From positions 3,295-67,294 of the forward strand of contig CAZVKB010000004.1 of NCBI GenBank assembly GCA_964627505.1: DNA of 64,000 nucleotides, in the 5' to 3' direction. A model generated the notes under the pieces. The model was not told the DNA's origin. It ran no database searches and saw only the letters and a program-made list of their open reading frames with translations. The position numbers and the translations under genes are program-made. Positions 4,840 through 63,167 of this stretch are shown here, in pieces (position 1 is the stretch's first letter; the number at the start of each line of letters is the position of its first letter). Origin of the DNA: an uncultured Actinomycetes bacterium (lineage in GTDB: Bacteria; Actinomycetota; Actinomycetes; S36-B12; UBA10799).

Positions 4840-5316
4840 ATGAAGCGCGCAATCATCGTCACGGCCGGCACGGTCGTGGGAGTAGGGGCTGCGCTTGCCT
4901 ACACTCCGCGGCCGCCCGCACTAGCCCTGCCCAGTGCGAGTGTGGTGCCGCCGATTTCCCCGCAAGCACCGAGCGCTCCGACCAGCCCGGTAACAGATGG
5001 CGCAGCTTCGGCGGTTGACACTGCTCTGCCCACCGCACCCAGCGGCGTGTTCACCGGAGACGTTGTGAGTACCCGATTCGGGGATATCCAGGTGCAGATA
5101 GCTGTTGCCCAAGGTGTGGTGCAGGATGCCGTGGCGGTGACCTACCCGGCGCTAGACGCCAAGTCGGCCGCCATTTCGGCGGCAGCGGTGCCGACCCTGC
5201 GCAGTGAGACGCTCGCTGCCCAATCCGCCGAGATCGCCACCGTCAGTGGTGCGAGCTATACCTCAGACGGGTGGGTCACCTCGCTGCAATCGGCGCTCGT
5301 CCAAGCAGGTCTGTGA
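4840..5316 (+). CDS. Exported FMN-binding domain protein with an N-terminal membrane anchor
   Basis: N-terminal TM/signal segment, an Ala/Pro/Ser linker, and a C-terminal FMN_bind-like domain. The flavinylation-type motif TVSGASYTS is encoded at 5245-5256. Confidence 0.75.
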   Translation: MKRAIIVTAGTVVGVGAALAYTPRPPALALPSASVVPPISPQAPSAPTSPVTDGAASAVDTALPTAPSGVFTGDVVSTRFGDIQVQIAVAQGVVQDAVAVTYPALDAKSAAISAAAVPTLRSETLAAQSAEIATVSGASYTSDGWVTSLQSALVQAGL

Positions 5317-5317
5317 C

Positions 5318-6100
5318 ATGACCGCGGTCCGACGTGCCAGCAGTGGGAGGTGGGAACGCATCGTGCATTGCGAACCCGTGTGGGGCACCGTGGTGAGCAT
5401 TGAGATCCGGGGGGCACACATGGCACAACAGTCGGCAGCGCAAGCCCTCGCGGCGGCGGCCGCCTGCGCCCATGAGGTGGATGCCCATTTCTCCACCTTT
5501 CGTGCTGACAGCGTCGTTTCCGCGCTGCGCACAGGCACCCTCACCTTGGCCGATACGCCACCAGCAGTGCAGGAAGTCTGGCGAGCGTGTGAATATACGA
5601 AATGGCTCACCCGCGGCGCCTTCGACTCGTGGGCGACACCAGGTGGCTTCGATCCGTCCGGTTTGGTCAAGGGTTGGGCCGCCGATCGCATGGCCGAATT
5701 AGTGGTGGACGCCGGGTTCCCAAATGTGACAGTCAACGCAGCCGGAGATGTGACGTGTCGAGGTGAACAGGCGCCCGGGGTGCCCTGGATCGTGGGCATT
5801 CGCGATCCGCGCTCTGCCGGTGACATCGTGCGCACCGTGGGTGTTTCAGCGGCCGCCGTGGCCACGTCCGGAAACTACGAACGTGGCGAGCACATCATCA
5901 ATCCCCACCATTACGACGCTGTCGCGAAACTCGACTCTGCGACCGTGATCGGGCCCGACGGCGCACTGGCTGACGCCTTGGCAACTGCTCTCGTCATTGT
6001 CGGCAATGCGGGGGTCGAGTTCTTCACCGATTTGCCCGGCTGGTCTGGATATCTGATCGCCGGCACGGATGTCAGTTACTTCGGCCCGGCGTTTGCCTGA
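5318..6100 (+). CDS. apbE: FAD:protein FMN transferase (ApbE family)
   Basis: ApbE-like motifs (GWAAD, ATSGNYERG, ADALATAL). The ATG sits 2 nt after the upstream stop. The longer ORF from 5204 overlaps the previous gene and was trimmed. Confidence 0.85.
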   Translation: MTAVRRASSGRWERIVHCEPVWGTVVSIEIRGAHMAQQSAAQALAAAAACAHEVDAHFSTFRADSVVSALRTGTLTLADTPPAVQEVWRACEYTKWLTRGAFDSWATPGGFDPSGLVKGWAADRMAELVVDAGFPNVTVNAAGDVTCRGEQAPGVPWIVGIRDPRSAGDIVRTVGVSAAAVATSGNYERGEHIINPHHYDAVAKLDSATVIGPDGALADALATALVIVGNAGVEFFTDLPGWSGYLIAGTDVSYFGPAFA

Positions 6101-6138
6101 CTACTTTCACCTCGATCGACGCACCCGTGCCGACAGTG

Positions 6139-7848
6139 TCACTTCGTACCATCAGCCCAGGTCAACAGCGCTTCCTGGACAGTGGTGACATACCCGTCCG
6201 GCCCGATCAGGTCGCTGATCCCGAAGTAGTCCAGCGTGGCACGGGCGTCGTCGGGGATTCGGGCGATCACAAACTTGGCCCCGGCGGCGCCGACCAGTGC
6301 AATCACCTTGCGCAGGGATTCCTCAGATGTCCAGTCCACGGTCTGTATCTCGGAGGCATCCAGCACAAAGACCGTCAAGGGCTGTGGCGGCGCCGACAGC
6401 AAGATCCGCACGTCATCGACTAGTCGGGAAGCATTGGCGAAATACAAATTCGCAGAGAAGTGGTAAACGATCAGCCCGGGAGCGGTCTGGATTCCAGGTT
6501 CCACCGACCGTTCCAGACGGTGTTCCTCAGCATTCAGTCCCAGCACGAAATTGTGGGGTCGAGAGGTGTGCGCGAGGTGCACCACGATTGAGGCCACGAT
6601 CGCCCACAGAATGCCAGCCCCGACTCCCACGAAAGCCACAATCACAGCCGTGCTCAGCGCTACCCAGAACTCATTCTTGTGAGGCAAGTGCATGAGCATC
6701 CGCAGCGTGCTCAGTTTGATCAGATGAATCGCAATCACGAACACGACTGCGGCCAGCGCCGACTCCGGCAGGTAATCGAACACCCCGGTGAGAAACATCA
6801 GCACCAGCGCCGTGAGCCCGGCTAGCACCAACATCGCCAGTTGCGAGTGGGCCCCGGACTTGTCGGCGATGGCGGTCTTCGTGGGTGACCCGTTGACGAC
6901 GAAGGTGGAGCCGAAACCAGCCGCCAAGTTGGCGCCACCCAATCCGATGAGATCGCGATTGGGCTTGTTGGGATCATCGTGGGCGATGGCGAACGCGCTC
7001 GATGTCGACACACTCTGCGCGATCACCACCAGCATCAGGACCAGCGCTGTCGGGCTCAGTGCGACCATGTCTGCCCAGGACACTGATGGCACCGTGATGG
7101 CTGGTAACCCCGCCGGCAGGGCACCGACTGTGGCTACTCCGTAATCTGTCTTCAGGTGCAGTAATCTCGCTGCAATCATGCTGCCGACCACCGCGATCAG
7201 CGGGCCCGGTACTCGGGGGGCGAACTTGCCCAACAACAAGATTGTGGCCACCACCGCCGCCGCAACAACCAGATCGGCGACGTTGCTCTCAGGTACATGA
7301 CGCGCCGTGTCCAGCAGTTTCTCGATGGTGGTGTCGCCGCTGGCAGAGACCCCCAACATGCCGTGCAGTTGTCCGAAGGCGATTTGAATCCCCACCCCGG
7401 TGAGAAACCCGGCGAGCACGGATCGGGACATGAAGTTGGACAGGAAGCCCAAGCGCAAGATTCCCGATCCCAGCAACAGCAGCCCCGTAATAATCGCCAA
7501 CACACACGTCAGCGCAAAAAAACGAGCCGGGTCGCCTGCGGCCAAAAGTCCAACCGCGCCCGCGCTGATAGCAGCGGTCGCCGAGTCGGCCCCCACCACC
7601 AGTCGTCGGGACGCCGCGATGACGGCAAACAGCAGCACGGGCAACAGGCAGGTGTACAGGCCTGTCTCGGCCGGCATGCCTGCGATCTTGGCGTATCCCA
7701 AGCCCTCCGGAATAGCCACCGCGGCCAGCGTGGCACCGGCGATCAGATCGGGGGTCAGCCAACGCCGCCGATAGGGCAACACCCCGCCCAACAGTCCATA
7801 GCGGGTGAGAAAACCGGTGCGCGGTGGTGAGACTGCGGGTGCATCCAT
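6139..7848 (-). CDS. SulP family inorganic anion transporter with a C-terminal STAS domain
   Basis: Polytopic membrane protein with a SulP-type N-terminus (LTRYGLLGG...DLIAG) and a STAS-like C-terminus. I used the ATG at 7848, which is preceded by GGGAGAG; the ORF stays open to 7956. Confidence 0.85.
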   Translation of the reverse strand: MDAPAVSPPRTGFLTRYGLLGGVLPYRRRWLTPDLIAGATLAAVAIPEGLGYAKIAGMPAETGLYTCLLPVLLFAVIAASRRLVVGADSATAAISAGAVGLLAAGDPARFFALTCVLAIITGLLLLGSGILRLGFLSNFMSRSVLAGFLTGVGIQIAFGQLHGMLGVSASGDTTIEKLLDTARHVPESNVADLVVAAAVVATILLLGKFAPRVPGPLIAVVGSMIAARLLHLKTDYGVATVGALPAGLPAITVPSVSWADMVALSPTALVLMLVVIAQSVSTSSAFAIAHDDPNKPNRDLIGLGGANLAAGFGSTFVVNGSPTKTAIADKSGAHSQLAMLVLAGLTALVLMFLTGVFDYLPESALAAVVFVIAIHLIKLSTLRMLMHLPHKNEFWVALSTAVIVAFVGVGAGILWAIVASIVVHLAHTSRPHNFVLGLNAEEHRLERSVEPGIQTAPGLIVYHFSANLYFANASRLVDDVRILLSAPPQPLTVFVLDASEIQTVDWTSEESLRKVIALVGAAGAKFVIARIPDDARATLDYFGISDLIGPDGYVTTVQEALLTWADGTK

Positions 7849-7873
7849 AGGCTCTCCCACACCGAAACGGGTA

Positions 7874-8557
7874 TCAGACTCCCGTGAGTCCGTCTGCTCC
7901 CAGCGGCAACTCCAGAGCAGCCAACGCCTGGGCGAACATTGTGTTCTTGATAGCACGCAAGGTGTCGGGATGCTTGCCTACCAGCGGTATCACATACTCG
8001 GCAGCGGTGGCAGTCAGGCCGTTTTCTTCGACACAGGCGTCCACGAGGCCGACCCGGGCCGCCTCCACACCGCCGAAGCGGCGCCCGGTAGTCATAGCAG
8101 CTACCGCGGTCTGCGGGGAAATCTTGGCTTGAATCAACGCCGCCATGCCTGGAGTGAAGGGAATATTGATGTCCACTTCCGGGAAGCAGAAGAATCCTCG
8201 ATCCCGGCGCATCACCCGGAAGTCGTGGGCCATCGCGAGCATCGCCCCGGCGCCGAACGCGTGTCCGTTGACGGCACACACCGTCGGCACCGGGAAGGCA
8301 CACATCCGCGCCAACAGATCATGAATGCGCCCGATGTACATCTGCACCTCGCCGGTATTGGCGATGAGCCACTCCAGGTCGAGTCCATTGGAAAAGAATT
8401 TGCCGGACGCCGTGGTGATCAACGCGGCGGGCGCACTGGCCTCGACCTCATCGAGCGCCGCAGCAATCTCGTCGAGCGCGGCCAACGAAAATCGGTTCTC
8501 GCCCGATCCCAGGTGCAAAGTGAAGATTGCCTCATCGTGCGTGAGTGCAACGCCCAT
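7874..8557 (-). CDS. Enoyl-CoA hydratase/isomerase (crotonase) family protein
   Basis: Crotonase-fold motifs FFSNGLDLEW and GHAFGAGAMLAMAHDFRVM. The start was trimmed to the ATG at 8557. Confidence 0.8.
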   Translation of the reverse strand: MGVALTHDEAIFTLHLGSGENRFSLAALDEIAAALDEVEASAPAALITTASGKFFSNGLDLEWLIANTGEVQMYIGRIHDLLARMCAFPVPTVCAVNGHAFGAGAMLAMAHDFRVMRRDRGFFCFPEVDINIPFTPGMAALIQAKISPQTAVAAMTTGRRFGGVEAARVGLVDACVEENGLTATAAEYVIPLVGKHPDTLRAIKNTMFAQALAALELPLGADGLTGV

Positions 8558-8677
8558 GTGAAACCTTTCCGAACCCGTGAGACGGTCGCGCAGGTGACCG
8601 ATGGCCAGCACTGTACCGGGACGGTGCGCGTCGACTATCGTCAGCGGCACCCACGATATTCCACCCAGGAGGTAACA

Positions 8678-9049
8678 ATGTTGGACTTCACCGAACGCAC
8701 CTTCAAATTGAGCGCCATGGATCCCAACGAGGTGGCCGGCCAGGTGGCGCCGCTGTTGGTGGAAGGGGAACAACTGTTTCTGGCTTTTCGTGGGGCCCGC
8801 GACTATGTGGCCTTCACCAGCAAGCGAATCATCGCCGTGGATGTGCAGGGGATGTCTGGAAAGAAGAAGGACTATTCATCGCTGCCGTACGCCAAGGTGC
8901 AGGTGTTCTCGGTAGAGACCTCTGGAGCATTTGACCGCGATGCTGAATTGGAATTGTGGTTCTCCGGGGTGGGGCGGGTGAAGTTCGAATTCAAGGGCGG
9001 AACGGACGTGGCATATCTCAGTCGGCTGGTCGCCACCTACGTCCTGTGA
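8678..9049 (+). CDS. Bacterial PH (pleckstrin-homology-like) domain protein
   Basis: A 123-aa protein resembling the bPH_2/YokE type (LFLAFRGARDYVAFTSKRIIAVD...). AGGAGG lies 6 nt upstream of the ATG. The rest of the 414-aa ORF 7805-9049 is antisense to the crotonase gene. Confidence 0.7.
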   Translation: MLDFTERTFKLSAMDPNEVAGQVAPLLVEGEQLFLAFRGARDYVAFTSKRIIAVDVQGMSGKKKDYSSLPYAKVQVFSVETSGAFDRDAELELWFSGVGRVKFEFKGGTDVAYLSRLVATYVL

Positions 9050-9064
9050 CCAGTTGGCTCTGAC

Positions 9065-10447
9065 GTGGTCTCGCCGGGAGTGCGGATTGCCTGGGATCTG
9101 CTGCGCGCGCGGCGGGCCGGTCCCGACGGCATCGCGGATCGCCAGCGTGCGCGCCTGCAGCAACTCGTCGCGCATGCACGAGCCACCTCGCCTTTCTACC
9201 GCGAGCACCTGCGCGCACTGCACGCAACCGACTGGGGACTCGCCGACATCCCCCCAGTCAACAAATCTGAACTGATGGCCGACTTCGACAACTGGGTAAC
9301 GGATCCTCGATTCGCCCGGGAGCGAGTGATGTCCTTCCTCAGCAGCAGCGCGGCGGTGGGCACGCCACTTGACGGGGCATTGATAGCGACGAGTTCCGGG
9401 GTGACCGGCCAACCCGGCATCTTTGTCCACGACGAGTTCGCCGTGGCTGTGTGTCAAGCCATGATCGTGGTGCGCGGCTACCTGGCGTGGCTGCGCTGGC
9501 CGCAAATCTCCGGATTCCTGCGCCACGGCGTCCGGGAAGCCGCCATCGTCGGAACCGGCGGCCACTTCGCCGGGGTGAGTTGGTTGGAACGAGCCCGGCA
9601 GCGGGCACCGTGGGTATCGAGAGTGATCAGTGTGCATTCAGCCCAATCCCCCATCGCGGCATTGGTGCGGGAACTCACGACCGTCGATCCGACCGCGTTG
9701 GTGGGCTACACCAGCGTGTTGCGGCTGCTGGCCGACGAGCAGATCGCCGGTCGGCTTGCGATTCACCCTTTGATCGCAGCAACATCTGGCGAAACCGCCA
9801 CAGATGGCGATCGGGCGCTGCTGGCCCGCGCTTTTGACTGTCCCATCAAGGAAACGTACGCCTGCTCCGAGGCGCTTTTCTTCGGATTTGGATGCGACCA
9901 GCGCTGGTTGCACGTCAGCGCGGACTGGGTGATCGTGGAGCCCGTGCAAGCTGACGGCAGCCCCACACCGCCGGGCGTGTTCTCGGATTCCGTGTTGCTG
10001 ACCAACCTGGCCAACCGGACCGCGCCGCTGCTGCGCTACCAGTTGGGGGATTCGGTGATGCGCCGCGCCGACCGATGCCCCTGCGGCAATCCGCTGCCGG
10101 CGTTTCGAGTGGCCGGCCGCAGGGACGACACGCTGGTGATGCACGATGCGACCGGGCAACCCGTGGCGATCTCCCCCGTGGCCTTCGGGCTACTGGCAGA
10201 GGCAGTGCCAGGGGTGCGCAACTGGCAAATCGTGCAGGTGGATCGCACGACCCTCACAGTGCGCGTCAGTGCAGATAAGACAGCAGCACCGACCGAATCA
10301 CAGGAGGCGATCGCGGAGGCATTCCGGGAACATCTGATGTCCGTTCTTCGTGCTCATGGAGTTGGCAACGTGACACTTGTGATCCAAGAAGCTCAGCTGC
10401 GGCCAGACGCGAAGAACGGCAAGTTCCGCCACGTCTACGCACTGTGA
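9065..10447 (+). CDS. Phenylacetate-CoA ligase / coenzyme F390 synthetase-like adenylate-forming enzyme
   Basis: N-terminal RQRARLQQLVAHARATSPFYREHL and an AMP-binding-type TSGVTGQPG motif. The size is typical of this family. Confidence 0.7.
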   Translation: MVSPGVRIAWDLLRARRAGPDGIADRQRARLQQLVAHARATSPFYREHLRALHATDWGLADIPPVNKSELMADFDNWVTDPRFARERVMSFLSSSAAVGTPLDGALIATSSGVTGQPGIFVHDEFAVAVCQAMIVVRGYLAWLRWPQISGFLRHGVREAAIVGTGGHFAGVSWLERARQRAPWVSRVISVHSAQSPIAALVRELTTVDPTALVGYTSVLRLLADEQIAGRLAIHPLIAATSGETATDGDRALLARAFDCPIKETYACSEALFFGFGCDQRWLHVSADWVIVEPVQADGSPTPPGVFSDSVLLTNLANRTAPLLRYQLGDSVMRRADRCPCGNPLPAFRVAGRRDDTLVMHDATGQPVAISPVAFGLLAEAVPGVRNWQIVQVDRTTLTVRVSADKTAAPTESQEAIAEAFREHLMSVLRAHGVGNVTLVIQEAQLRPDAKNGKFRHVYAL

Positions 10448-10498
10448 CTGCTCTTGGTCGCACGGGTGCGCTGGCGAGCAGTGGCAGTCAGCAGGCTC

Positions 10499-11329
10499 CT
10501 AGTTGGGCACCGGCGCGCAGTACTGTTCGGGACTTTGATCGGCGATGATGTCCACTGTGGTGCCCTGGCGGACAACGAACTCGCTGGCACCAATCTTGTT
10601 GGCGGGATCGCCCCAGTCGTACGTGTATCCCATGCGGGTCCATGGGTACGGGTTGGCAGGGTCGTAGGCCAAGGCTTTCTGCAAGCGGAACCAGTCGGCG
10701 TGGTTGGGGTATGCCGGGTCCTCAGGTTGCACAGTGCCGTCGTCGTACACGGCAGTGGTGTCAGCAATTTGGGGATCGGGCGTCGGCCGGAACATGCCAG
10801 ACAGCGGGACCATCATGGTCACCATAGTCACCGGTTTGGCGTGCGGCGGCATGCCCAGGTATTGCAGGGAGCGCAGTGCCGGATCGGTGCCACCCGCCGC
10901 GACATAGGAACGGCAGAAATCCTGCAACTCCGGCACCGGAGTCAGCCAAACTTCGCGACTGAGAGTCATGGGCTGGCCGACACTGTCCGCATAACCAGTC
11001 CAGTCCGTCAACGTGACCATTTCGGCTGCCGTGTTGTCGGCGTTGAACACAACGTTCGAGGCCCCTGGGGTGAGGGCCACCAACGAGGGCGCCAACTGGT
11101 CGGGCCCGGCAGTTTCGGCATCTGCCACCGCAGCTAGGTACGCCGCGGGCAACTGGGTAGCGGTGGGGCTGGCTGCGGCAGAGGCCGAAGTGGAACTCGC
11201 TGTTGCGGTCGGGTCGGTGCTGGTGTCCGTGCCACTACATCCGGTGACAGTCAGACCGAGCGTGAGGACGAACCCGGCAGCCACACTTGGTTGAACCATT
11301 CGCATAGTGATCACGTTACGCCTGGCCAC
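10499..11329 (-). CDS. Hypothetical lipoprotein
   Basis: Signal peptide with lipobox LTVTGC, followed by a Ser/Thr/Ala linker. I recognise no catalytic motif. Confidence 0.6.
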   Translation of the reverse strand: MARRNVITMRMVQPSVAAGFVLTLGLTVTGCSGTDTSTDPTATASSTSASAAASPTATQLPAAYLAAVADAETAGPDQLAPSLVALTPGASNVVFNADNTAAEMVTLTDWTGYADSVGQPMTLSREVWLTPVPELQDFCRSYVAAGGTDPALRSLQYLGMPPHAKPVTMVTMMVPLSGMFRPTPDPQIADTTAVYDDGTVQPEDPAYPNHADWFRLQKALAYDPANPYPWTRMGYTYDWGDPANKIGASEFVVRQGTTVDIIADQSPEQYCAPVPN

Positions 11330-11387
11330 TGTGCGTGTTCGAAAGGGTCGCAGCGCTCAATACCCCCCACGGCGACCGCAGCAGATA

Positions 11388-11834
11388 TCAGCCCAGCACG
11401 CCGATCTGATACTCAGCCAAGGTTTCGTTCGGCTCGCTCTGACTGCCGTGCTGACCGCTGAACGCTGAGGTTCCGTCGATGCCACACAGCCGATAGATGT
11501 TTTGGTCTCCGCCCGGGTGTTTGGTCGCCCAGGAGGTGACGTCATAGACCTTGCCATTGATGGCAGTCCAACAATCCGACTGCTTGTTGTGGGTGGCGAC
11601 CTCAGCCAGGGTGTACACGCCGGTCGATCCAGACGGCGAAGCAGACGGGCTCGTACTTGCGGTCGCCGAGCCCGACGCCGCGGTGGGGCTCGCAGAAGCG
11701 GGACTTGCGGCGGCGCTCGTCGCGGGTGCGCTGCTCGTAGTGGTGTTGGTGGCCGAACTGCTGCATGCGGTTAGAGCCAACCCTGAGACGATGATGCCCA
11801 GAATCAAAGTGGACGAACTGCGCGCGCGCTTCAT
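11388..11834 (-). CDS. Lipoprotein with a C-terminal cytochrome b5-like heme/steroid-binding domain
   Basis: Signal and lipobox LALTAC, a long Ser/Ala/Thr linker, then the b5-like core HNKQSDCWTAINGKVYDVTSWATKHPGG. The start was trimmed to the ATG at 11834. Confidence 0.7.
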   Translation of the reverse strand: MKRARSSSTLILGIIVSGLALTACSSSATNTTTSSAPATSAAASPASASPTAASGSATASTSPSASPSGSTGVYTLAEVATHNKQSDCWTAINGKVYDVTSWATKHPGGDQNIYRLCGIDGTSAFSGQHGSQSEPNETLAEYQIGVLG

Positions 11835-11919
11835 ACCGGTGCTCCTTAGGTGCGATGACGGTGCCGTGTCACAAACCCTGCCACATGAATACTCAGGCCG
11901 CTGCAGGCGCACCCAGCGC

Positions 11920-12891
11920 TCAGCGGTGGAAGTGCTGCCAGCCGCGATTGCCTTTGCGCTGACCGCCATCCACCACCACATCTACGGGGCCCTCCACCAC
12001 CGCACCGATCTTGACGAAACTGCCCGGCAGCGTGGCTCCCTTCGGGAAGGTCGCGACGAGGGCGTGGTCGTCGCCACCTGTGAGTACCCACGAGAGCGGA
12101 TCGACGCTGAATGCGATGGCCGTGTCACGTAAAACCGGGTCCACCGGTAACGCGGCGGCTTCGATATCTATCCGCACGCCAGATGCATCGGAGATGTGAC
12201 CCAGGTCGGCCAACAGCCCGTCACTCACGTCGATCATGGCCGTGGCACCTGCCGCTGCCGCAGCTGGACCAGCGGAGTACGGCACGTCTGGCCGACGCAC
12301 GGCATCCACGAGCAGTCGCGGCGACCGGAATCCGCGGCTGAGCACGGCCAATCCAGCCGCGGCCCAACCCTGGCGGCCGGCGATGGCGACTTGGTCCCCG
12401 ACAGCTGCACCACCACGTCGTACCGGCGGTACCTCCCCGAGGTCACCGATGGCAGTCACCGACAACACAATCGGTCCGTCGGTGGCATTGGTGTCGCCAC
12501 CTGCAATGACCGCTCCGATGGACTCTGCTTCAGCCTGAATGCCGTCGATCAAGTCCGCTACCCATCCAGCTTCCGTGGTGTCGGGCAACCCCAGCGCCAC
12601 CAGCAACGCCCGTGGTCGGGCCCCCATCGCCGCGATATCCGCCAGGTTGGCCGCCGCTGCTCGATGACCTACGTCCTCGGCAGTCGACCAATTGGTGCGA
12701 AAGTGCCGCCCCTCCACCAGCATGTCGGTGCACACCACTGTGGAGCCGGCAGGTGTCATCGTGACCACGGCAGCATCGTCCCCTACACCCACGGTGACGT
12801 ATTCCGAGGTGGGAAGTCCCTCGGTGATGACGTCAATGAGCGCAAATTCGTCCAGCTGCGACACCTGGTGGTGACGAGTGCTTCTGTCCAC
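11920..12891 (-). CDS. thiL: Thiamine-monophosphate kinase
   Basis: AIR-synthase-like fold motifs: EFALID, GVGDDAAV, TDMLVEGRHF, GGDTN. Confidence 0.9.
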   Translation of the reverse strand: MDRSTRHHQVSQLDEFALIDVITEGLPTSEYVTVGVGDDAAVVTMTPAGSTVVCTDMLVEGRHFRTNWSTAEDVGHRAAAANLADIAAMGARPRALLVALGLPDTTEAGWVADLIDGIQAEAESIGAVIAGGDTNATDGPIVLSVTAIGDLGEVPPVRRGGAAVGDQVAIAGRQGWAAAGLAVLSRGFRSPRLLVDAVRRPDVPYSAGPAAAAAGATAMIDVSDGLLADLGHISDASGVRIDIEAAALPVDPVLRDTAIAFSVDPLSWVLTGGDDHALVATFPKGATLPGSFVKIGAVVEGPVDVVVDGGQRKGNRGWQHFHR

Positions 12892-55429: not shown

Positions 55430-56914
55430 GTGCGCACCCTTGACCCGGACTTTCTCGAGTTGCCTGCCGAAGCCTGCGGATCTGCCGCGTTGGCGAGTGC
55501 GCAGTCCCTGGGTGCCATGTGGGCTGACGTGCGGGTGTCAGCCGACGTCGAGCGCAACGTCAGCATGCGCGACGGGTCGGTGGAGAACGCGGACAGTCAC
55601 GAGTCGATGGGGATCGGGGTGCGGGTGATCGTCGACGGCAGTTGGGGCTTCGCCAGTACCACCACGCTGACGCCCGGTGCCGCAGCTGCCGCCGCAACCC
55701 GAGCCGTGGCGATGGCCCGTTCGCTGTCGGCCTTGGTGACGACTCCGGTACAGCTCGCCGCCGAACCCGCAGTCCGTGGGACCTGGGTGAGCCCGTACGA
55801 CGTCGACCCTGTCACCGTTGCAGACGCTGAGGTGGCGCAACTCTTCGCCGAACACAGCGCGCGACTTCTGGCGACACCGCATGTGAGCCACGTCACCTGT
55901 ACTTTCCACGCGACGAAGGAGCGCACGTACTACGCCGATTCCGCCGACGCTGCCACGTGGCAGCAGCGGGTGCGCTGCCATCCGCAGGTCACTGCGTTGG
56001 CGGTCACCGACTCGGGGTTCGAGGACATGACCACCACGCTGCCGCCACAGGCCCGCGGGTGGGAATACCTGACCCTCCCGCAGTGGGATGAGCAGATTGT
56101 GCAACTCCCCGAACACCTCGCCGACCGGATCGCGGCACCGGCTTTGGAGCCAGGCCGTTATGACCTCGTGATCCACCCGTCCAATCTCTGGCTCACCATC
56201 CACGAAAGCGTGGGCCACGCCACCGAATACGACCGGGCGGTGGGTTTCGAGGCGAATTATGCAGGGACCTCATTCGCCACGCCCGAACAACTCGGCACCT
56301 TGCGCTACGGCAGCAGCCTCATGCACATCACCGGTGACCGCACCGCACCCAACGGCCTAGCCACGGTTGCCTGGGATCACGAAGGGGTAGCGGCGCAGGA
56401 ATGGGACATCGTGCGCGACGGCGTCCTCGTCGGCTACCAACTCGACCGATGGGGGGCCGCCGTGCTGGGCGCACCACGCTCCAACGGCTGCGCCTACGCC
56501 GACGATCCCAGTCACGTGCCGTTGCAGCGCATGCCCAACGTGTCGCTGGCACCAGCCGAATCAGGACCTGACGTACCTGCCCTGATCGCCGGCGTGACCG
56601 ATGGGCTGCTTGTGGAAGGCGACAAGAGTTGGTCGATTGACATGCGCCGCCGCAATTTTCAATTCACCGCGCAACGCTTCTGGCGCATCCGCAATGGGGT
56701 GCTGGCGGGGCAGGTCAAGGACATTGCCTACCAGAGCGACACCTTGGATTTTTGGCGTTCGCTGGTGGCCTTGGGTGGGGAGCAGACCTATGTGCTGGGA
56801 GGTGCCGTGAACTGTGGCAAGGGCCAACCCGGGCAAGTGGCGGCAGTCAGTCACGGCTGCCCGGCTGCGGTCTTCGAAGGCGTCAACGTGCTCAGCACCG
56901 GGCGGGTGACATGA
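55430..56914 (+). CDS. tldD: TldD family metalloprotease
   Basis: HESVGHATE metal-binding motif and a Gly-rich C-terminus (GGAVNCGKG). GTG start. Confidence 0.85.
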   Translation: MRTLDPDFLELPAEACGSAALASAQSLGAMWADVRVSADVERNVSMRDGSVENADSHESMGIGVRVIVDGSWGFASTTTLTPGAAAAAATRAVAMARSLSALVTTPVQLAAEPAVRGTWVSPYDVDPVTVADAEVAQLFAEHSARLLATPHVSHVTCTFHATKERTYYADSADAATWQQRVRCHPQVTALAVTDSGFEDMTTTLPPQARGWEYLTLPQWDEQIVQLPEHLADRIAAPALEPGRYDLVIHPSNLWLTIHESVGHATEYDRAVGFEANYAGTSFATPEQLGTLRYGSSLMHITGDRTAPNGLATVAWDHEGVAAQEWDIVRDGVLVGYQLDRWGAAVLGAPRSNGCAYADDPSHVPLQRMPNVSLAPAESGPDVPALIAGVTDGLLVEGDKSWSIDMRRRNFQFTAQRFWRIRNGVLAGQVKDIAYQSDTLDFWRSLVALGGEQTYVLGGAVNCGKGQPGQVAAVSHGCPAAVFEGVNVLSTGRVT

Positions 56915-58296
56915 GCGCATCAGCCCACCCCAGCTCCACCGATCCGGCGCCATTGGTGACCGAAGTCCTCAACACTGCAACTGCTGGCGAGGTGATCGTC
57001 GGGGTCACAGTCAGCGGCGAAGTCAATTCCCGCTGGGCGATGTCCATGCCCACGACCAACGGCAGCCAGTTCGCCGAAACCATCACGATCACCGCCATTG
57101 CGCCCAGCTGCGATGGCGCGAGTGCCGCCACAAGATCGGGACCCGTGGCGCTGTGGCGTGAACTGCTGGCCCAGGCCGAGGCTGCCGCCCGGGAAGGTTC
57201 GCCGACACTCGACCATGCCCCGCTCCTGCCCGGCTCTGCGCAGCCGGGATGGACGGCTCCCCCTGCGGACATGCCAATGCTCGACGTGCCCGACGCGCTG
57301 GTCGCGGCATTCGCGCAAGACAGCGACACCGAATATTTCGGGTATGCCGAGGAGTCCGCTGCCACCACCTATGTCGGCACCAGCACCGGTTGGCGTTGGC
57401 GCTCGCAGACTCGGTCCGCGCGCTTCGAGTTGTGCGGTAAGCAGGCCGAACGCACCCGATCGGCGTGGCACGGCGCAGCTGGTGAGCGGCTCAGCGACGT
57501 GGATGCACAGGCAGCTGTGACCGATGTGCGCGCCGGGTTGGCCCAGCAACAGCAACCGGTGCGCCTCGAGGCGGCCCCCACGACGGTGATCCTCACGCCC
57601 TCAGCTGTGGCCGACTTGCTGCTGTGCTTGTGGTGGGAAACCGACGCCCGGGCGGCAGCTGAAGGCCGTAGCGCCTTCAGCGGGGACGGTCCCGGCGGCA
57701 CCTCGCTGGGTTCGGTGCTCAGCCAGCGTCAGTTGTCGTTGCGCTCGGATCCGCACGCCAAGGGCATGTCGGCACCTGATCGCCTGTGGGCGCCCTTCAG
57801 CGGTTCCGGGATCTCGCTGTTCGACACCGGCAGCGCGATCGGCGACGTGGCGTGGATTGCCGACGGGCGACTTGCAGCCCTGATCACCAGCCGGGGGGCG
57901 GCTGCCGAATTCGGCATCCCGGCGCACGTGCCGGCGGAGAATCTGTTGCTCGCCGACGCCGACGGCCACGGCACACTCGCCGACGTGATCGCGCGCACTG
58001 ACCGAGCCCTGCTCATCACCAGCCTCTGGTACATCCGGGATGTGGACCCGCAGCAACTATTGGTCACCGGCCTCACCCGAGATGGCACCTACCTGGTGAC
58101 AGACGGGCAGATCACCGGGGCGACCGGCAACTTTCGCTTCAACGATTCCCCGCTCGACATGCTCACCCGCATCCTGGACGCCGGTGACTCGGTGCGCTGC
58201 TTGCCTCGGGAGTGGGCCGACTACTTCTCCCGCACCACGATGCCGCCGCTGGTGGTTGCCGAATTCGGTCTGTCCACTTCCTCGTCTGCGGTGTAG
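56911..58296 (+). CDS. TldE/PmbA-like partner of TldD
   Basis: ATGA coupling to tldD. PmbA_TldD-fold C-terminus (YIRDVDPQ...GLTRDGTYLV..G). It lacks the HExxxH-like motif, as PmbA partners do. Confidence 0.75.
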   Translation: MSASAHPSSTDPAPLVTEVLNTATAGEVIVGVTVSGEVNSRWAMSMPTTNGSQFAETITITAIAPSCDGASAATRSGPVALWRELLAQAEAAAREGSPTLDHAPLLPGSAQPGWTAPPADMPMLDVPDALVAAFAQDSDTEYFGYAEESAATTYVGTSTGWRWRSQTRSARFELCGKQAERTRSAWHGAAGERLSDVDAQAAVTDVRAGLAQQQQPVRLEAAPTTVILTPSAVADLLLCLWWETDARAAAEGRSAFSGDGPGGTSLGSVLSQRQLSLRSDPHAKGMSAPDRLWAPFSGSGISLFDTGSAIGDVAWIADGRLAALITSRGAAAEFGIPAHVPAENLLLADADGHGTLADVIARTDRALLITSLWYIRDVDPQQLLVTGLTRDGTYLVTDGQITGATGNFRFNDSPLDMLTRILDAGDSVRCLPREWADYFSRTTMPPLVVAEFGLSTSSSAV

Positions 58297-58406: not shown

Positions 58407-59399
58407 ATGCGCGCATGGCTCCTCGACGCCCCCGGCTCACAACTTCGTTTGGGACATCTCCCAGACCCGGCGCCGGGTCCCGGACAGTGGCTGGTTCGCG
58501 TGCGCTTCTGCGGCTTGAATCCAGTGGACTGGAAACTCGCTGCCAACGGACATCCCGATTGGGTCTGGCCGCAAGTGTTGGGGTTGGACGTCGTCGGCGA
58601 GGTGGTGGGCACCGGGGTCGATGCGCCGCCGCCCGCTGGGCTCATCGCCGCCCACCTCGACCTTGCTCAGCGTGGCGGTCTGGCGGAATACGTGACCCTC
58701 ACCCCGGGCGTGACGGCCGCACTCCCCGCCGGGCTGGATCCCTGGACGGCCGCCACCATGCCGTGCCCCGGGCTGACAGCTTGGCAAGCGGTCAGTCGGA
58801 TCGCGGACATCCTCGGGCGAGCCGGCCATAGTCGCCGGGCGTTGGTGCTCGGCGGGGGTGGCCCGGTGGGTTCCTTGGCTGTACAACTGCTGGTGCAGCA
58901 AGGTGCGCAGGTGGCTGCGACCTGCTCTGCCACCGATCGTGCGCGCGTGCACGACTTGGGCGCAATCTGGACTGCGGATTACCACAACCCGCAGGCACTG
59001 CCGGAACTTGTCACCGCAGCCGGCGGGCCGTTCGCCTGCGTCGTGAATACGGCGACGCCACAAGCAGCGGAGGATGCTCTGCCGCTTGTGGAATTCACAG
59101 GTGCGCTCGCGTCCATCACCGGCCGACCTCATGCGTCTGAGGTGCCGGAGTTCACTCTGGCACCGACATTGGTGGAAGTAGCGCTGGGGGCTATTCACTC
59201 CCATGGAACTCATGACCAGCAAGCCGCTTTCGGCGATGCCCTGCACCGACTGCTCGACGCTGTTGACCAGGGGCGGCTCACTGCGCCGCAAGCGACGGTG
59301 GTGCCAATGACCGACGTTGCTGACACTCTGACCAAAATGTCGCACAGCACCGGCAGCAAGTATGTCGTGGAAGTCGCCGCCAGTTCGAAGGAGTTTTGA
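58407..59399 (+). CDS. Zinc-type alcohol dehydrogenase / quinone oxidoreductase (MDR family)
   Basis: N-terminal GQWLVRVRFCGLNPVDWK and a Rossmann-fold motif VLGGGGPVGSLAVQL. Confidence 0.8.
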   Translation: MRAWLLDAPGSQLRLGHLPDPAPGPGQWLVRVRFCGLNPVDWKLAANGHPDWVWPQVLGLDVVGEVVGTGVDAPPPAGLIAAHLDLAQRGGLAEYVTLTPGVTAALPAGLDPWTAATMPCPGLTAWQAVSRIADILGRAGHSRRALVLGGGGPVGSLAVQLLVQQGAQVAATCSATDRARVHDLGAIWTADYHNPQALPELVTAAGGPFACVVNTATPQAAEDALPLVEFTGALASITGRPHASEVPEFTLAPTLVEVALGAIHSHGTHDQQAAFGDALHRLLDAVDQGRLTAPQATVVPMTDVADTLTKMSHSTGSKYVVEVAASSKEF

Positions 59400-59403
59400 T
59401 GAT
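59350..59403 (+). repeat. Left copy of a 54-bp imperfect direct repeat (51/54 identical to 62759-62812)
   Basis: Base-by-base alignment by hand. It covers the last ~14 codons and stop of the MDR gene plus an overlapping ATG. Confidence 0.85.
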
Positions 59404-59520
59404 GGTGGCGTTGGCTGGCCGGAATTGGCTCACGACCTTCGAGAACCGAGGTGGCTGCCAGAGCAGGTATCACGGGACATCTAGCTCATCTGGGCTGTCG
59501 GATGTGGCGTCCATGATCGA

Positions 59521-60666
59521 TCAATCGCGGCCAAGGATGGCTTCCTGGTATCGATCGTCGGTCCTGGCGACCACCGTGGGCCATCCGAAATCCGGTTGGT
59601 TCGCCATATTGCGATTGGTCACGGTCGTCCGCAGTTCCTGCTCAGACACCAGTCGGGCGATTGCCGCAGCGAGACCCTCGTCATCGTTGGCGAGTAGACC
59701 TTCCCGACCGTGACGCACGAACTCCGATATCCCGCTGTCGTGCAATGCCACAACGGGGAGTCCGAATGTCCGCGCTTCCAGGGCTGCGATCCCAAACGAC
59801 TCAAGGCGTGCGGGCGCCACATATATATCTGAGAGGGAGTAATAGGCACGTATCTCAGCGTGTGACTTCCAGCCCACGCACCGAACCCAACCCATTTTCC
59901 TGTGCACAAGGATCTTTTCGATTGCACCCCTGTCTGGACCATCTCCAACGATGATGGCGCGCAGTTGGATCTCAGCTGGGATTCGGGACCGAACTTCACC
60001 CAGAATGTCGATCAACGCCTCGCTGCGTTTCCGCACTGCCAACCGCCCTACGGAGATGATTGTCACCTCATTAGGTGGCCGCACCTTGCGCACCTCACAC
60101 TCGCGTTCAGTTGATCGCCAAAATGGGATGTCGATGCCATTAGACAGGACTGACACTTCCGCTCGACCGCCCAAGGCGTGTCTGAGTGGGCGCGCCGCTA
60201 CTTCGCTGACCGCGGTCCACACCACAGGCCACTTCCGCCAACAGAACAATGCGTCGGCCATCGCGAAGATGCGCGACCAGTTGGCCCACACCGAATGCAC
60301 TGTGACCACCACCGGCAGACCAGCCTTCACTGCAGTTCGCAACGCCGGCCAAGCGAAGGGGGACACTAATCCGGCATGAACGTGAACTACGTCGGTATCT
60401 GCCACCAGCTCTGACCGAAGTTGTTTTCCGATGCGATGAGTGACAGGCAGCTCGTAGGGCAAGTTGGTGACAAGGCGGTGGATTGGCACAGCACCGCTGG
60501 TGTAATCGTCAGCAGTTGTTGCCGGTAGGCCTCGCGTACCTGTGGCTGTCACGACTCGAGGCTGGTGTCCGATCGCAAGTTGTGCACGGGCTAATCCCTG
60601 CACCTGTAACTCGATTCCACCCGTCCTGGGCAGATAGCAGTCACTCACATGAGCGACGCGCAGCAT
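59521..60666 (-). CDS. GT4-family (GT-B, retaining) glycosyltransferase
   Basis: N-terminal HVSDCYLPRTGGIE and the C-terminal EX7E motif ESFGIAALEA. Locally lower G+C than the flanks. Confidence 0.85.
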   Translation of the reverse strand: MLRVAHVSDCYLPRTGGIELQVQGLARAQLAIGHQPRVVTATGTRGLPATTADDYTSGAVPIHRLVTNLPYELPVTHRIGKQLRSELVADTDVVHVHAGLVSPFAWPALRTAVKAGLPVVVTVHSVWANWSRIFAMADALFCWRKWPVVWTAVSEVAARPLRHALGGRAEVSVLSNGIDIPFWRSTERECEVRKVRPPNEVTIISVGRLAVRKRSEALIDILGEVRSRIPAEIQLRAIIVGDGPDRGAIEKILVHRKMGWVRCVGWKSHAEIRAYYSLSDIYVAPARLESFGIAALEARTFGLPVVALHDSGISEFVRHGREGLLANDDEGLAAAIARLVSEQELRTTVTNRNMANQPDFGWPTVVARTDDRYQEAILGRD

Positions 60667-60718
60667 GCTTTCTCCTCACTGCTCACCCCTCGGGCTACGT
60701 GTTTGGAAGACTAGGCCT

Positions 60719-61564
60719 GTGCCCTCCACCGTAGTGTTCCTCCATGCTCATCCCGACGATGAGGCTCTCATGACTGGCGGAACGATGGCACGGCTCGCTG
60801 CCGAGGGGCATCGGGTGGTGCTGATAACTGCGACAGACGGCGCAGCCGGCCTCACTGCTTCCACGACGATCAGCACCCGAACGTTGGCATCCGTTCGCCG
60901 TGAAGAATTGCAGAGATCGATAACCGTCCTCGGGGTAGCGAGACTCGTCCTGCTCGGATACGCCGACTCGGGTCTCGACGGCAACGGCACACCGTCGACA
61001 GCGGGGCTGGATCGCCAATCAGACGTGCCCTTCACTCACGTGGCGACCGAAGCCGCTGCGTCCAAGGTTGCTGCGATTCTCGAGGAAGAGACTGCCGATG
61101 TGCTTGTGGGCTACGACGCGGCGGGTGGGTACGGTCATCCAGACCATAAGCAGGTTCATCGCGTCGCCCGGCTTGCCGCACAGATGACGCCGGCGGTGAT
61201 GCTGCTGGAGGCAACTCTCCCCCGCGAACCTCTGGCGCGGGCAGTGACAGGCGCCCATCACCTGCGTCGCATCATCCCTGCGCTGGGTGGACTTGATCCA
61301 GCGACGTGGTCGGTCGCGCACACACCACGAGCAGACATCACCCACCGTGTCAACGTCCGACGCTTCGCTGATGTCAAACGAGCGGCCATCGCTGCACACG
61401 CATCCCAGCAGGCCGCCGACCGGGATGTGCGTACGTTGGAGGTGCTGCTGCGGTTGCCCCGACCCGCATTTCGGCTACTGCTGGGGTGGGAATGGTACGT
61501 CGGACCGCGGTCGGCACGCACCCGGTACGTCACCCATCCGCTTGCCAAGACGGCGAAAAGTTGA
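60719..61564 (+). CDS. PIG-L / LmbE family N-acetylglucosaminyl deacetylase
   Basis: Zinc-site motifs AHPDDE and GHPDH. GTG at 60719 was chosen to leave a divergent promoter gap; the ORF stays open to 60665. Confidence 0.8.
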   Translation: MPSTVVFLHAHPDDEALMTGGTMARLAAEGHRVVLITATDGAAGLTASTTISTRTLASVRREELQRSITVLGVARLVLLGYADSGLDGNGTPSTAGLDRQSDVPFTHVATEAAASKVAAILEEETADVLVGYDAAGGYGHPDHKQVHRVARLAAQMTPAVMLLEATLPREPLARAVTGAHHLRRIIPALGGLDPATWSVAHTPRADITHRVNVRRFADVKRAAIAAHASQQAADRDVRTLEVLLRLPRPAFRLLLGWEWYVGPRSARTRYVTHPLAKTAKS

Positions 61565-61568
61565 ACAA

Positions 61569-62666
61569 GTGACTCCACCCGAAGACGTCACCGGAGCCCA
61601 GAGCGTGTCGATGTGGCGCCCAACTGGCGGTCAAGTCGCATTGTCTTTGGGGGCCTTGGCATTGGGCGCAGCCCTGATCGCGTTTGCGCTGCCACAGGCG
61701 GCGGGCACAGATTGGTCGCAGGCGATCGCCGCACTGGCGAGCCTTCGCCCGCTGGAGATTGCTCTCATAACACTCTTATGGGCCGTCGGACTTTGGCTGT
61801 ACACCTTCGTCTACACAGGCAGTCTGCCCGGACTGCGACATTCCCAATCACTCGCACTAAATCTCACCGGTTCCCTGGTCTCGAATCTGCTCCCCTTCGG
61901 TGGCGCCGCCGGGGTGGCCAATACGTATGCCCTGACCTTCTCGTGGGGTTTCTCAGGTATCGCGACATCGCTGATGGTTCTGGTGAGTGGTCTGGCAAAT
62001 CTGCTCATGCGACTCGTACTTGTGCTGATCGGTCTGGTGGCATTGCAGATGAGCGAGGCCACCCTGTCGGCCGCGGGCGGTCGCATCACGCTGGGGACGG
62101 TCGTTGCCACGGCGTTGGTCACCGTCGCGGTCGTGGGGATGCTCGCCAATTCCCGCTTCGCCGGCGGCATCGGTTCACTTGGGGACCTGGTACTTCGCGC
62201 CTTGCGGCGGATGGGGCATCGCGCTGAACCACGCACTTCACTGCACGACTCTGCCATCGACATGCAGAAACGTGCGAAACCACTGCTGGCGAAGGGCTGG
62301 CTTCCGGTGGCCTTCGGGATGACTTCCTACTACGCAACCGAAACGCTGTTTTTCGGCATAGCGCTACACGCCCTGGGGGCACCCCTGCCCTGGAACGAAG
62401 TCATCGCGGCCTTTGCGTTATCCCGGGTGTTGACAGCCGCCACCGTGACTCCTTCTGGTGTCGGCATCTCGGAAGTGGGCACCGCGGCCGCCCTCGTACT
62501 GTTCGGCACACCACCGGCCATCGCAGCAGCAGCGGTGCTGGTGTTGGGGTTCTACACGTACCTGATAGAGATTCCAGTTGGTTTTGTCGGCTACATATGG
62601 GTGGCATTGATGCGACGGTGGCGGGTTCAAGGCAGCACTCCACCCGAGATTGCTCCGTCGCCCTAG
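61569..62666 (+). CDS. Flippase-like membrane protein (lysylphosphatidylglycerol synthase TM region / UPF0104 family)
   Basis: About 8 TM segments with the family-typical SLVSNLLPFGGAAGVANTY. GTG at 61569 lies 4 nt after the PIG-L stop; an alternative ATG lies at 61611. Confidence 0.7.
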   Translation: MTPPEDVTGAQSVSMWRPTGGQVALSLGALALGAALIAFALPQAAGTDWSQAIAALASLRPLEIALITLLWAVGLWLYTFVYTGSLPGLRHSQSLALNLTGSLVSNLLPFGGAAGVANTYALTFSWGFSGIATSLMVLVSGLANLLMRLVLVLIGLVALQMSEATLSAAGGRITLGTVVATALVTVAVVGMLANSRFAGGIGSLGDLVLRALRRMGHRAEPRTSLHDSAIDMQKRAKPLLAKGWLPVAFGMTSYYATETLFFGIALHALGAPLPWNEVIAAFALSRVLTAATVTPSGVGISEVGTAAALVLFGTPPAIAAAAVLVLGFYTYLIEIPVGFVGYIWVALMRRWRVQGSTPPEIAPSP

Positions 62667-62758
62667 AAGTAGTGGACTGTGAAGGGATAAGGCGATCCAG
62701 CTGTTCTGCCCACGCGATCAACTCGTCCGCGTGGGCGCGAATCAGGTGCTCGACAGCC

Positions 62759-62812
62759 CCGGCAGCCAGTATGTTGTGGAAGTCACCGCCAGTTCGAAGG
62801 AGTTTTGATGAT
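62759..62812 (+). repeat. Right copy of the 54-bp imperfect direct repeat
   Basis: It carries a C-terminal stub of an MDR-like frame (SQYVVEVTASSKEF-stop) and the true ATG of the NifX-like gene. Confidence 0.85.
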
Positions 62813-63167
62813 CGTTGCAGTGCCGGTAGATGAGCACGGACATGTCGGCCACTCGTGGGGGCGGGCGCATACTGTCGCCATTGCGCGGGTGACCGGTGAC
62901 AGCGTCACGGATTGGCACGAGTACCCCGTGGGCTGGGATGCACTCCACGATCAAGGCTCAGAAGGGGCGCATCACGCTCGGGTCGTGAAGTTCTTACGCG
63001 AACACGAGGTGTCCGGTGTGGCCTTGTCACACGTCGGGCCAGGAATGCAGCGCATGATGGCAACCATGGGCATTTACCTGGTTACCGGAGCCAGCGGCGA
63101 CGCAACAGAGGCCGTGATCGCATTGGCGCGTGACGCTGAAACCGAGCCTGAGTATCCCAACACATAA
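62808..63167 (+). CDS. NifB/NifX-family (dinitrogenase FeMo-cofactor-binding-like) small protein
   Basis: IVAVPVDEHGHVGHSWGRAHTVAI...GVALSHVGPGM...GIYLV pattern of the Nitro_FeMo-Co domain. Confidence 0.6.
   Translation: MIVAVPVDEHGHVGHSWGRAHTVAIARVTGDSVTDWHEYPVGWDALHDQGSEGAHHARVVKFLREHEVSGVALSHVGPGMQRMMATMGIYLVTGASGDATEAVIALARDAETEPEYPNT

Follow-up and report, generated by a model that had tools for sequence, protein, structure and literature searches.

A conserved GT4, PIG-L and UPF0104 gene trio of Actinomycetes as a candidate module for making and exporting an amino-sugar lipid

The DNA described here is a 64,000-nucleotide stretch of contig CAZVKB010000004.1 from an uncultured Actinomycetes bacterium (GenBank assembly GCA_964627505.1), referred to over its whole length as the window, and the subject is a three-gene cassette at positions 59521–62666. 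The first gene encodes a GT4 glycosyltransferase of the retaining GT-B type (59521..60666, minus strand, 381 amino acids (aa)), recognized by Pfam profiles and an EX7E motif. It is followed by a gene for a PIG-L/LmbE-family zinc N-deacetylase (60719..61564, plus strand, 281 aa from a GTG codon at 60719), matched by the Pfam PIG-L profile, and by one for a polytopic membrane protein of the UPF0104 / LPG_synthase_TM family (61569..62666, plus strand), which has 365 aa when read from GTG 61569 or 351 aa from ATG 61611. An initial annotation of this DNA had counted exactly three protein genes here and placed them in these families; all three open reading frames (ORFs) were found again and Pfam profile searches upheld each assignment. 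The three genes do not, however, form a co-oriented operon. The GT4 gene lies on the minus strand and diverges from the PIG-L and membrane-protein genes across an intergenic region of 52 nucleotides (nt; 60667..60718), which runs from the GT4 start to the PIG-L start codon.

The start of the PIG-L gene is most likely GTG 60719, because the homologues begin there, with the N-terminus VP(S/F)TVVFLHAHPDDE, and because a similar divergent gap, of 52–58 nt, is seen in relatives, measuring about 56–58 nt in the metagenome-assembled genome (MAG) loci closest to the window (L006, L011 and L089). The window protein itself begins VPSTVVFLHAHPDDE. An ATG at 60665 is a less likely start, and the start at 60770 given in public gene calls (264 aa; L001–L003 and L091–L098) was rejected, as it lies 51 nt too far downstream and cuts the HPDDE zinc-binding motif. 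Similarly, a 459-aa ORF from 61287 is an over-extended version of the membrane-protein gene, for which GTG 61569 or ATG 61611 is retained; public gene calls give this protein 351 aa. The membrane-protein gene starts 4 nt past the PIG-L stop codon in the window, and the two genes overlap in the relatives L018 and L089. An AGGAG ribosome-binding site, read from the sequence, precedes the GT4 ATG. A consensus scan of the 52-nt divergent region found no sigma-70 consensus promoter, and terminator consensus scans and tRNA and Rfam searches returned nothing useful.

The glycosyltransferase matches the Pfam families Glycos_transf_1 (2.4e-26) and Glyco_transf_4 (7e-18) in profile searches, and it combines two Rossmann-like domains with an EX7E motif, as expected of the retaining GT4 class. 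The motif, which the initial annotation had already pointed out, is ESFGIAALE at E289–E297. An alignment of 84 family members shows its two glutamates and the pair R212/K213 to be invariant. The best solved relatives in the Protein Data Bank (PDB) are all distant ones: PimA, aligned at full length with 58 bits, MshA, aligned in the C-terminal half only, and BshA. The highest-scoring NCBIfam profiles are those of enzymes that use UDP-N-acetylglucosamine (UDP-GlcNAc), namely BshA (95 bits) and MshA (76 bits), and the protein falls below equivalog level for MshA, BshA, GpgS and Mgs. There is no match to the Pfam PIGA domain, and PimA, an enzyme dependent on phosphatidylinositol (PI), is the best solved relative at only 58 bits. 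A search of 5.8 billion proteins returned no named or characterised orthologue, only generic names. All similarities of the GT4 protein and of the deacetylase to characterised enzymes were classed as below 100 bits and as not discriminating for the acceptor. As proposed here, the GT4 protein would be a synthase that attaches an N-acetylhexosamine (probably GlcNAc, with UDP-GlcNAc as the donor) to a membrane-lipid head group.

The second protein matches Pfam PF02585 at 3e-29 in a profile search and contains both motifs of its family, HAHPDDE and GGYGHPDH, within which lie the AHPDDE and GHPDH zinc motifs reported initially. In an alignment of 84 subfamily members, residues H11, D13, D14, R60, D83, Y138, H140, D142 and H143 are invariant. 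Four of these (H11, D13, D14 and H143) make up the zinc ligands and general base, and the set includes the counterparts of MshB Arg68, Asp95, Tyr142, His144 and Asp146. The protein therefore carries the features by which LmbE-like enzymes are recognized: an HxDD + H metal motif, a general-base Asp and the substrate-binding Arg, Asp, Tyr and His (residue roles as in PMC4101496). The nearest solved structure is MshB (64 bits, residues 5–154), and the protein stays under the NCBIfam equivalog cut-offs for MshB, Mca and BshB. Sequence scans detected no transmembrane (TM) segment and no signal peptide in either the GT4 protein or the PIG-L protein, so that both synthesis and deacetylation are expected at the cytoplasmic face. 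On the evidence of its conserved residues, the PIG-L protein is proposed to convert an N-acetylhexosaminyl lipid to a hexosaminyl lipid with a free amine.

The membrane protein matches Pfam LPG_synthase_TM (PF03706) at 1.9e-20, over profile positions 3–301 of 302. Its AlphaFold model has a mean pLDDT of 85.9 and contains 11 helices. When this model was compared with the PDB using Foldseek, the top four matches were all MprF (7f47, 9goe, 9j8q and 9j8s; probability 1.00, TMq 0.51–0.55), and the matches after these had TM-scores below 0.2. With PF03706 covered over the whole profile and a model that matches MprF structures only, the protein belongs to the family of the MprF flippase half, as the initial annotation had proposed. 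It contains no aminoacyl-phosphatidylglycerol synthase domain (bifunc_MprF NF033480, 21.6 bits vs a cut-off of 600). The invariant residues of its subfamily include polar and charged ones within the membrane (N84, N92, N130, R134, R272, E288 and E320). In the proposed scheme the protein would translocate the modified lipid or serve as its membrane partner. When 1.84 billion cluster representatives were searched with a profile, 438 clusters of this subfamily were collected at 50% identity (E <= 1e-30). One member, P0498 (594 aa), carries an N-terminal fusion to a PAP2_3 domain (Pfam 'PAP2 superfamily'). We take the PAP2_3 family to include Aur1/Ipt1-like lipid head-group phosphotransferases, and the fusion hints that the UPF0104 domain may pair with other lipid head-group enzymes too.

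One genome per species in GTDB was scanned with the membrane-protein alignment, which led to 357 confirmed loci; the analysis covers the 80 best of these. All three genes are present in 77 of these 80, a grouping far beyond chance, and the co-occurrence across Actinobacteria that the initial annotation had wished to see checked is borne out. The trio is carried by Streptosporangiales, Pseudonocardiales, one Nocardioidaceae MAG and uncultured lineages. Its usual order, GT4 on the minus strand followed by PIG-L and the membrane-protein gene on the plus strand, is kept in nearly all loci. In the Nocardioidaceae MAG (L062) the order is membrane protein, GT4, PIG-L on one strand, and the linkage therefore survives rearrangement. 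Three loci depart from the trio: one is cut by a contig end (L034), and in two the membrane-protein gene stands alone (L016 and L077). In the latter two, from Streptoalloteichus tenebrarius and a Streptosporangium sp., the UPF0104 gene lies at 7001–8026 with no GT4 or PIG-L gene within 7 kb, and these genes may be paralogues with another partner.

Clustering of neighbouring ORFs in the 80 loci detected no fourth gene conserved across lineages. In 51 loci, all from Streptosporangiaceae or close MAGs, a gene for a regulator of about 1130 aa resembling SARP/AfsR directly follows the trio, at about 8150–11530 in most of the Streptosporangiaceae loci (L017–L084). It was assigned by reading the sequence, which has an N-terminal winged-helix/BTAD-like part, an NTPase-like region and TPR-like repeats. 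The gene may encode a regulator of the module or may simply reflect synteny within the lineage. Neighbour-joining trees of the GT4 and PIG-L proteins are broadly congruent, and in them the window groups with trios of uncultured Actinomycetes (L005–L015 and L089).

Among the matches of the membrane-protein profile search were proteins in which an N-terminal LPG_synthase_TM domain is followed by a complete GT4 enzyme: P0390 (737 aa; L099, 413–2626) and P0400 (747 aa; L100, 1320–3563, and L101, 222–2465). Along its full length, the window GT4 shares 39–40% identity with the fused GT4 parts, and the unfused orthologues in Streptosporangium trios reach the same level. On the P0400 contigs a PIG-L gene follows 12 nt downstream of the fusion gene, and on the P0390 contig the first 15 PIG-L codons are visible before the contig ends. 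As judged from their domain order, the glycosyltransferase of these fusions is physically attached to the membrane protein at its cytoplasmic end. The fusions are the strongest computational argument for a membrane-lipid acceptor; the fused GT4 copies the layout of MprF, in which a flippase domain is followed by a cytosolic lipid-modifying domain.

Taken together, we lean slightly towards reading the cassette as a split MprF-like lipid-modification module of the synthase-deacetylase-flippase (SDF) type (after GpgSDF and HexSDF, compared below), which would make and export an amino-sugar lipid. In the first step, a cytoplasmic, membrane-associated GT4 enzyme would place an N-acetylhexosamine, most likely alpha-GlcNAc from UDP-GlcNAc, on the head group of an inner-leaflet lipid. 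The PIG-L zinc hydrolase, with its intact catalytic residues and cytoplasmic location, would then strip the N-acetyl group and leave a free amine, turning an anionic or neutral lipid into a zwitterionic or cationic one. Finally, as its fold, the linkage of its gene and the domain fusions suggest, the UPF0104 protein would move the amino-sugar lipid to the outer leaflet, where the lipid would lower the negative charge of the surface. This sequence of GT4, PIG-L and flippase-like steps towards an aminoglycolipid had been put forward in the initial annotation, and it is supported, as a hypothesis, by the conserved linkage, the congruent trees, the fusions and the MprF-only fold match. As a first guess the acceptor would be PI, followed by phosphatidylglycerol (PG), as in GpgSDF, or a glycosyl-diacylglycerol, as in HexSDF. 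PI is placed first because the GT4 protein resembles PimA over the full length, the deacetylase is similar to MshB and Actinobacteria are rich in PI.

Several observations weigh against this reading. Neither sequence nor profile searches gave a PDB match for the membrane protein, its sequence similarity to MprF being weak, and the TM-scores to MprF structures reach just about 0.5. The acceptor lipid and the identity of the sugar are inferred from sequence and not from direct evidence, and outward flipping is likewise deduced from the model. GT4 enzymes at a similar level of similarity, such as MshA and BshA, use soluble acceptors. In the two SDF systems described so far, the final lipid is still produced when gpgF or hexF is mutated, and the flippase role of the membrane protein is predicted only (PMC12713373, PMC10128005).

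Pairs of GT4 and PIG-L genes that lack the third gene count on the same side. The PIG-L subfamily is larger than that of the membrane protein, and six genomic contexts of PIG-L homologues with 50–60% identity were inspected. In four of them (L085, L086, L088 and L090) a divergent pair, with the GT4 gene just upstream of the PIG-L gene on the opposite strand, lies between dapF and miaA with no adjacent membrane-protein gene. In L087 a co-oriented pair has no membrane-protein gene nearby. The GT4 and PIG-L proteins of these pairs are 40–43% and 51–56% identical, respectively, to those of the window. The sixth context (L089) holds a full trio beside a restriction-modification system. The dapF–miaA pairs come from uncultured Actinomycetota, including a Nanopelagicales MAG, and sit in a miaB-miaA-...-dapF-hflX core region with the PIG-L gene at about 5001–6771. 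In the GT4 tree they form one clade nested among trio clades, which suggests that the third gene was lost or relocated. In the pair-only genomes the third gene is therefore dispensable or encoded elsewhere, and the product of these relatives need not be a lipid.

One other explanation is that the two enzymes are the MshA and MshB of ordinary mycothiol synthesis. In both NCBIfam and the PDB the deacetylase matches MshB best, and one of the top matches of the GT4 protein is MshA. However, the GT4 protein scores 76 bits against an NCBIfam cut-off of 462.5 for MshA, and over its C-terminal half only, and the PIG-L protein scores 113 against 224.35 for MshB and 102 against 277 for Mca. Tight clustering with MshA and MshB, which the initial annotation had named as the outcome that would overturn its proposal, is not what these scores indicate. 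Adjacency and fusion to a membrane protein have no place in mycothiol synthesis, and neither mshC nor mshD is linked to the trio in the neighbourhoods of the 80 loci. Mycothiol synthesis is thus effectively refuted. The pair might instead make another soluble glucosamine (GlcN) glycoside, of the GlcN-inositol or GlcN-malate type or like the BtrM/BtrD sugar, with the membrane protein acting as its exporter or being an unrelated neighbour. Pairs of GT4 and PIG-L enzymes with soluble acceptors are known (MshA/MshB, BshA/BshB and BtrM/BtrD; PMC4101496), the best profile matches of the window enzymes are BshA, MshA and MshB, and the pairs without a membrane-protein gene occupy a housekeeping site between dapF and miaA. 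Against this, 77 of the 80 loci have the trio linked, genes for a cysteine ligase or another downstream enzyme are not linked to it in any of the loci, and the fusion of a membrane domain to the GT4 enzyme is hard to explain. Furthermore, the UPF0104/MprF fold is known for lipids and not for the export of small molecules (PMC12713373). A soluble product is therefore regarded as distinctly unlikely.

Two further alternatives keep the lipid in the scheme. The enzymes could modify a lipid-linked carrier or glycan intermediate, such as a polyprenyl-phosphate sugar or the precursor of a PI-anchored lipoglycan, which would be exported to supply glucosamine to a wall polymer or lipoglycan, following the logic of ArnC/ArnD/ArnEF or of galactosamine addition to mycobacterial arabinogalactan. 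Such a route would likewise combine genes for a transferase, a de-N-acylase and a membrane translocator. The GT4 protein resembles PimA and PimB', which start lipoglycan synthesis, and the TM–GT4 fusion places the acceptor at the membrane while leaving the kind of lipid unspecified. Weighing on the other side, no GT-C or other extracytoplasmic transferase is conserved beside the trio in the 80 loci, and in both proven SDF systems the final product is a free membrane lipid. Polyprenyl-phosphate sugar synthases, moreover, normally belong to GT2 and not to GT4. We consider a carrier intermediate unlikely. Alternatively, the lipid may be made as proposed while the UPF0104 protein serves as a dock for the GT4 enzyme, a substrate-presenting subunit or a regulator instead of a flippase, the product then staying in the inner leaflet or being moved by other proteins. 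The persistence of the final lipid in the gpgF and hexF mutants, with no flipping assay for either protein, would agree with this, as would the relatives without an adjacent membrane-protein gene, and the domain fusion fits docking as well as flipping. The specific fold match to the MprF flippase domain and the polar and charged residues kept invariant within the membrane, as would be expected of a translocation path, speak for a flippase, although both are weak arguments. A role other than flipping is judged rather unlikely.

If the amino-sugar lipid reading is taken up again, the distribution of the trio suggests a possible product. Among the best 80 loci, 51 of the 60 named (cultured) genomes belong to the Streptosporangiaceae, in the genera Streptosporangium, Nonomuraea, Microbispora, Microtetraspora, Planobispora, Planomonospora, Sphaerisporangium, Planotetraspora and Rhizohabitans, a share affected by the bias of the ranking towards the query alignment. 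Streptosporangiaceae are of phospholipid type IV, with 'unknown glucosamine-containing' phospholipids (GluNU) that are ninhydrin- and sugar-positive, and have no PG (PMC3035251, PMC8049491, PMC3035289). The scheme of phospholipid types and the GluNU lipids go back to Lechevalier 1977, as cited in the same three papers. Tentatively, and with considerable doubt, the trio could be the genetic basis of the GluNU lipids, the product being glucosaminyl-phosphatidylinositol, for which an MprF-like flippase would be the exporter. The match between genes and lipids is imperfect, however: Actinomadura, Actinocorallia, Spirillospora and Saccharothrix carry the trio as well, and it is present in Thermomonosporaceae and Pseudonocardiales. 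These two groups are, we assume, not classically of phospholipid type IV. The trio is nevertheless a candidate locus, testable by knockout, for glucosamine phospholipids that have been used in chemotaxonomy for decades. If true, a glucosaminyl-PI product would give bacteria an equivalent of the two steps with which glycosylphosphatidylinositol (GPI) anchor synthesis opens in eukaryotes and archaea.

In the window the cassette is flanked by a gene resembling zinc-type alcohol dehydrogenases (ADH) and by a small gene for a Nitro_FeMo-Co-domain protein. A direct repeat of 66 nt brackets the 3.4-kb cassette, with its left copy at 59344..59409 and its right copy at 62753..62818, both on the plus strand. 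The copies are 91% identical and spaced 3409 nt apart, and in pairwise alignment their similarity stops at the repeat ends. Each contains the last 17 ADH codons and the overlapping start of the next gene: the left copy comprises the 3' end of the ADH-like gene and the first codons of the following gene, and in the right copy a remnant of 17 codons from the ADH 3' end runs into the Nitro_FeMo-Co-domain gene, whose start is intact. In a tblastn comparison 14 of the 17 remnant residues are identical to the ADH C-terminus. This arrangement suggests an old insertion between two translationally coupled genes that duplicated their junction. Mobility is suggested here by the 66-nt repeat and the unique context alone, the flanks of the window being absent from all 80 related loci. 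The cassette is present in each of the eight metagenome contexts in which the identical downstream protein occurs, and no empty junction between the ADH-like and Nitro_FeMo-Co-domain genes was detected in metagenome contigs with an exact 27-nt junction pattern. Horizontal transfer signalled by a low G+C content was considered and rejected, as the cassette, at 0.60–0.63, is inside the window range of 0.60–0.67.

Two features of the surroundings may be recorded in addition. Upstream of the ADH-like gene, tandem genes for PmbA/TldD-type metallopeptidases lie at 55430–58296 and are unrelated to the cassette. Strains that carry the same cassette (L091–L098) differ in a variable island at about 10200–12360 of those contexts, about 4 kb past the right end of the window. 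In some contigs this island encodes an OLD-family nuclease, type I restriction HsdR or AbiEii; other contigs have unrelated genes at this place.

The trio can be compared with several known systems, and those nearest to it are the two SDF modules. GpgSDF of Pseudomonas aeruginosa, published in 2025, consists of a GT4 enzyme, a COG3233 deacetylase and a UPF0104 protein, and makes GlcNAc-PG and then GlcN-PG, also in E. coli (PMC12713373). HexSDF of Clostridioides difficile, published in 2023, consists of an enzyme resembling monogalactosyldiacylglycerol (MGDG) synthase, a CE4 deacetylase and an MprF-like protein. It is needed for an aminohexosyl glycolipid, aminohexosyl-hexosyl-diradylglycerol, and for the cells to resist daptomycin and bacitracin, and a hexD mutant accumulates the N-acetyl lipid (PMC10128005). 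The window trio has the gene content that defines such a module: a linked glycosyltransferase, N-deacetylase and UPF0104 membrane protein. With GpgSDF it has in common that the GT4 enzyme and the N-deacetylase are both cytoplasmic and that a UPF0104/COG0392 membrane protein is encoded together with them (a likeness at the level of the PF03706 family), as well as the same course from GlcNAc-lipid to GlcN-lipid to proposed flipping and the same expected effect on membrane charge. It differs in that its PIG-L/LmbE deacetylase is not homologous to the COG3233/CE4-like one of GpgSDF, its GT4 protein is not a GpgS equivalog (NF053787, 51 bits vs a cut-off of 480), its GT4 gene is divergent and its host belongs to another phylum. 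HexSDF similarly combines a synthase, a deacetylase and an MprF-like membrane protein. In contrast to the trio, HexS is of the MGDG-synthase type and not GT4, and HexD is a CE4 polysaccharide deacetylase, perhaps extracellular, whereas PIG-L is cytoplasmic; nor is a two-component regulator linked to the trio.

MprF itself shares with the trio membrane protein the fold of its N-terminal flippase domain and Pfam PF03706. It also shares with the TM–GT4 fusions the order of flippase and then cytosolic domain, and a less negative surface charge would be expected from both. The trio protein is smaller, however, with 351–365 aa against about 840 aa for the bifunctional MprF, it has no aminoacyl-tRNA-dependent synthase domain, and an amino sugar, the product of two steps, would supply the cationic group instead of an amino acid. 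The fusions P0390 and P0400 would represent an MprF-like single-chain architecture for glycosyl rather than aminoacyl modification.

The chemistry of MshA/MshB and of eukaryotic PIG-A/PIG-L, in which a GT4 enzyme transfers GlcNAc to an inositol-type acceptor and a PIG-L-family zinc enzyme then deacetylates it, is close to that proposed here, and the catalytic residues of MshB are all conserved in the trio PIG-L. The trio enzymes are nonetheless not equivalogs of MshA and MshB, no PIGA-domain match is found, and those pathways have no dedicated UPF0104 partner. The trio would give a bacterial model for GT4 and PIG-L chemistry on lipids, as in early GPI-anchor synthesis. A more distant parallel is the ArnC/ArnD/ArnE-F route to 4-amino-4-deoxy-L-arabinose (L-Ara4N) on lipid A, in which a lipid-linked N-acylated amino sugar is likewise de-acylated on the cytoplasmic face and flipped, with a reduction in surface charge. 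That route differs in using a GT2 enzyme, a CE4-type deformylase, an SMR-like flippase, an undecaprenyl phosphate carrier and a final GT-C enzyme, none of which is linked to the trio.

Set against these precedents, the synthesis-and-flipping idea of the initial annotation was right in kind, and its novelty holds in part, HexSDF (PMC10128005) and GpgSDF (PMC12713373) having come before it. Literature searches found no paper that links PIG-L with UPF0104 or that treats this actinobacterial trio. Judged by its genes, the trio appears to follow the SDF logic already known, with the PIG-L deacetylase and a GT4 enzyme other than GpgS as its new parts. The modification of lipids with amino sugars is emerging as a second route, beside aminoacylation by MprF, by which bacteria lower their surface charge, and it influences how cells resist daptomycin, bacitracin and cationic peptides. 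The SDF systems characterised so far are two, one from a firmicute and one from a proteobacterium. The Actinomycetes trio would be a third version, built independently with PIG-L, that is widespread and evolutionarily old in Actinobacteria and sometimes fused into an MprF-like single protein.

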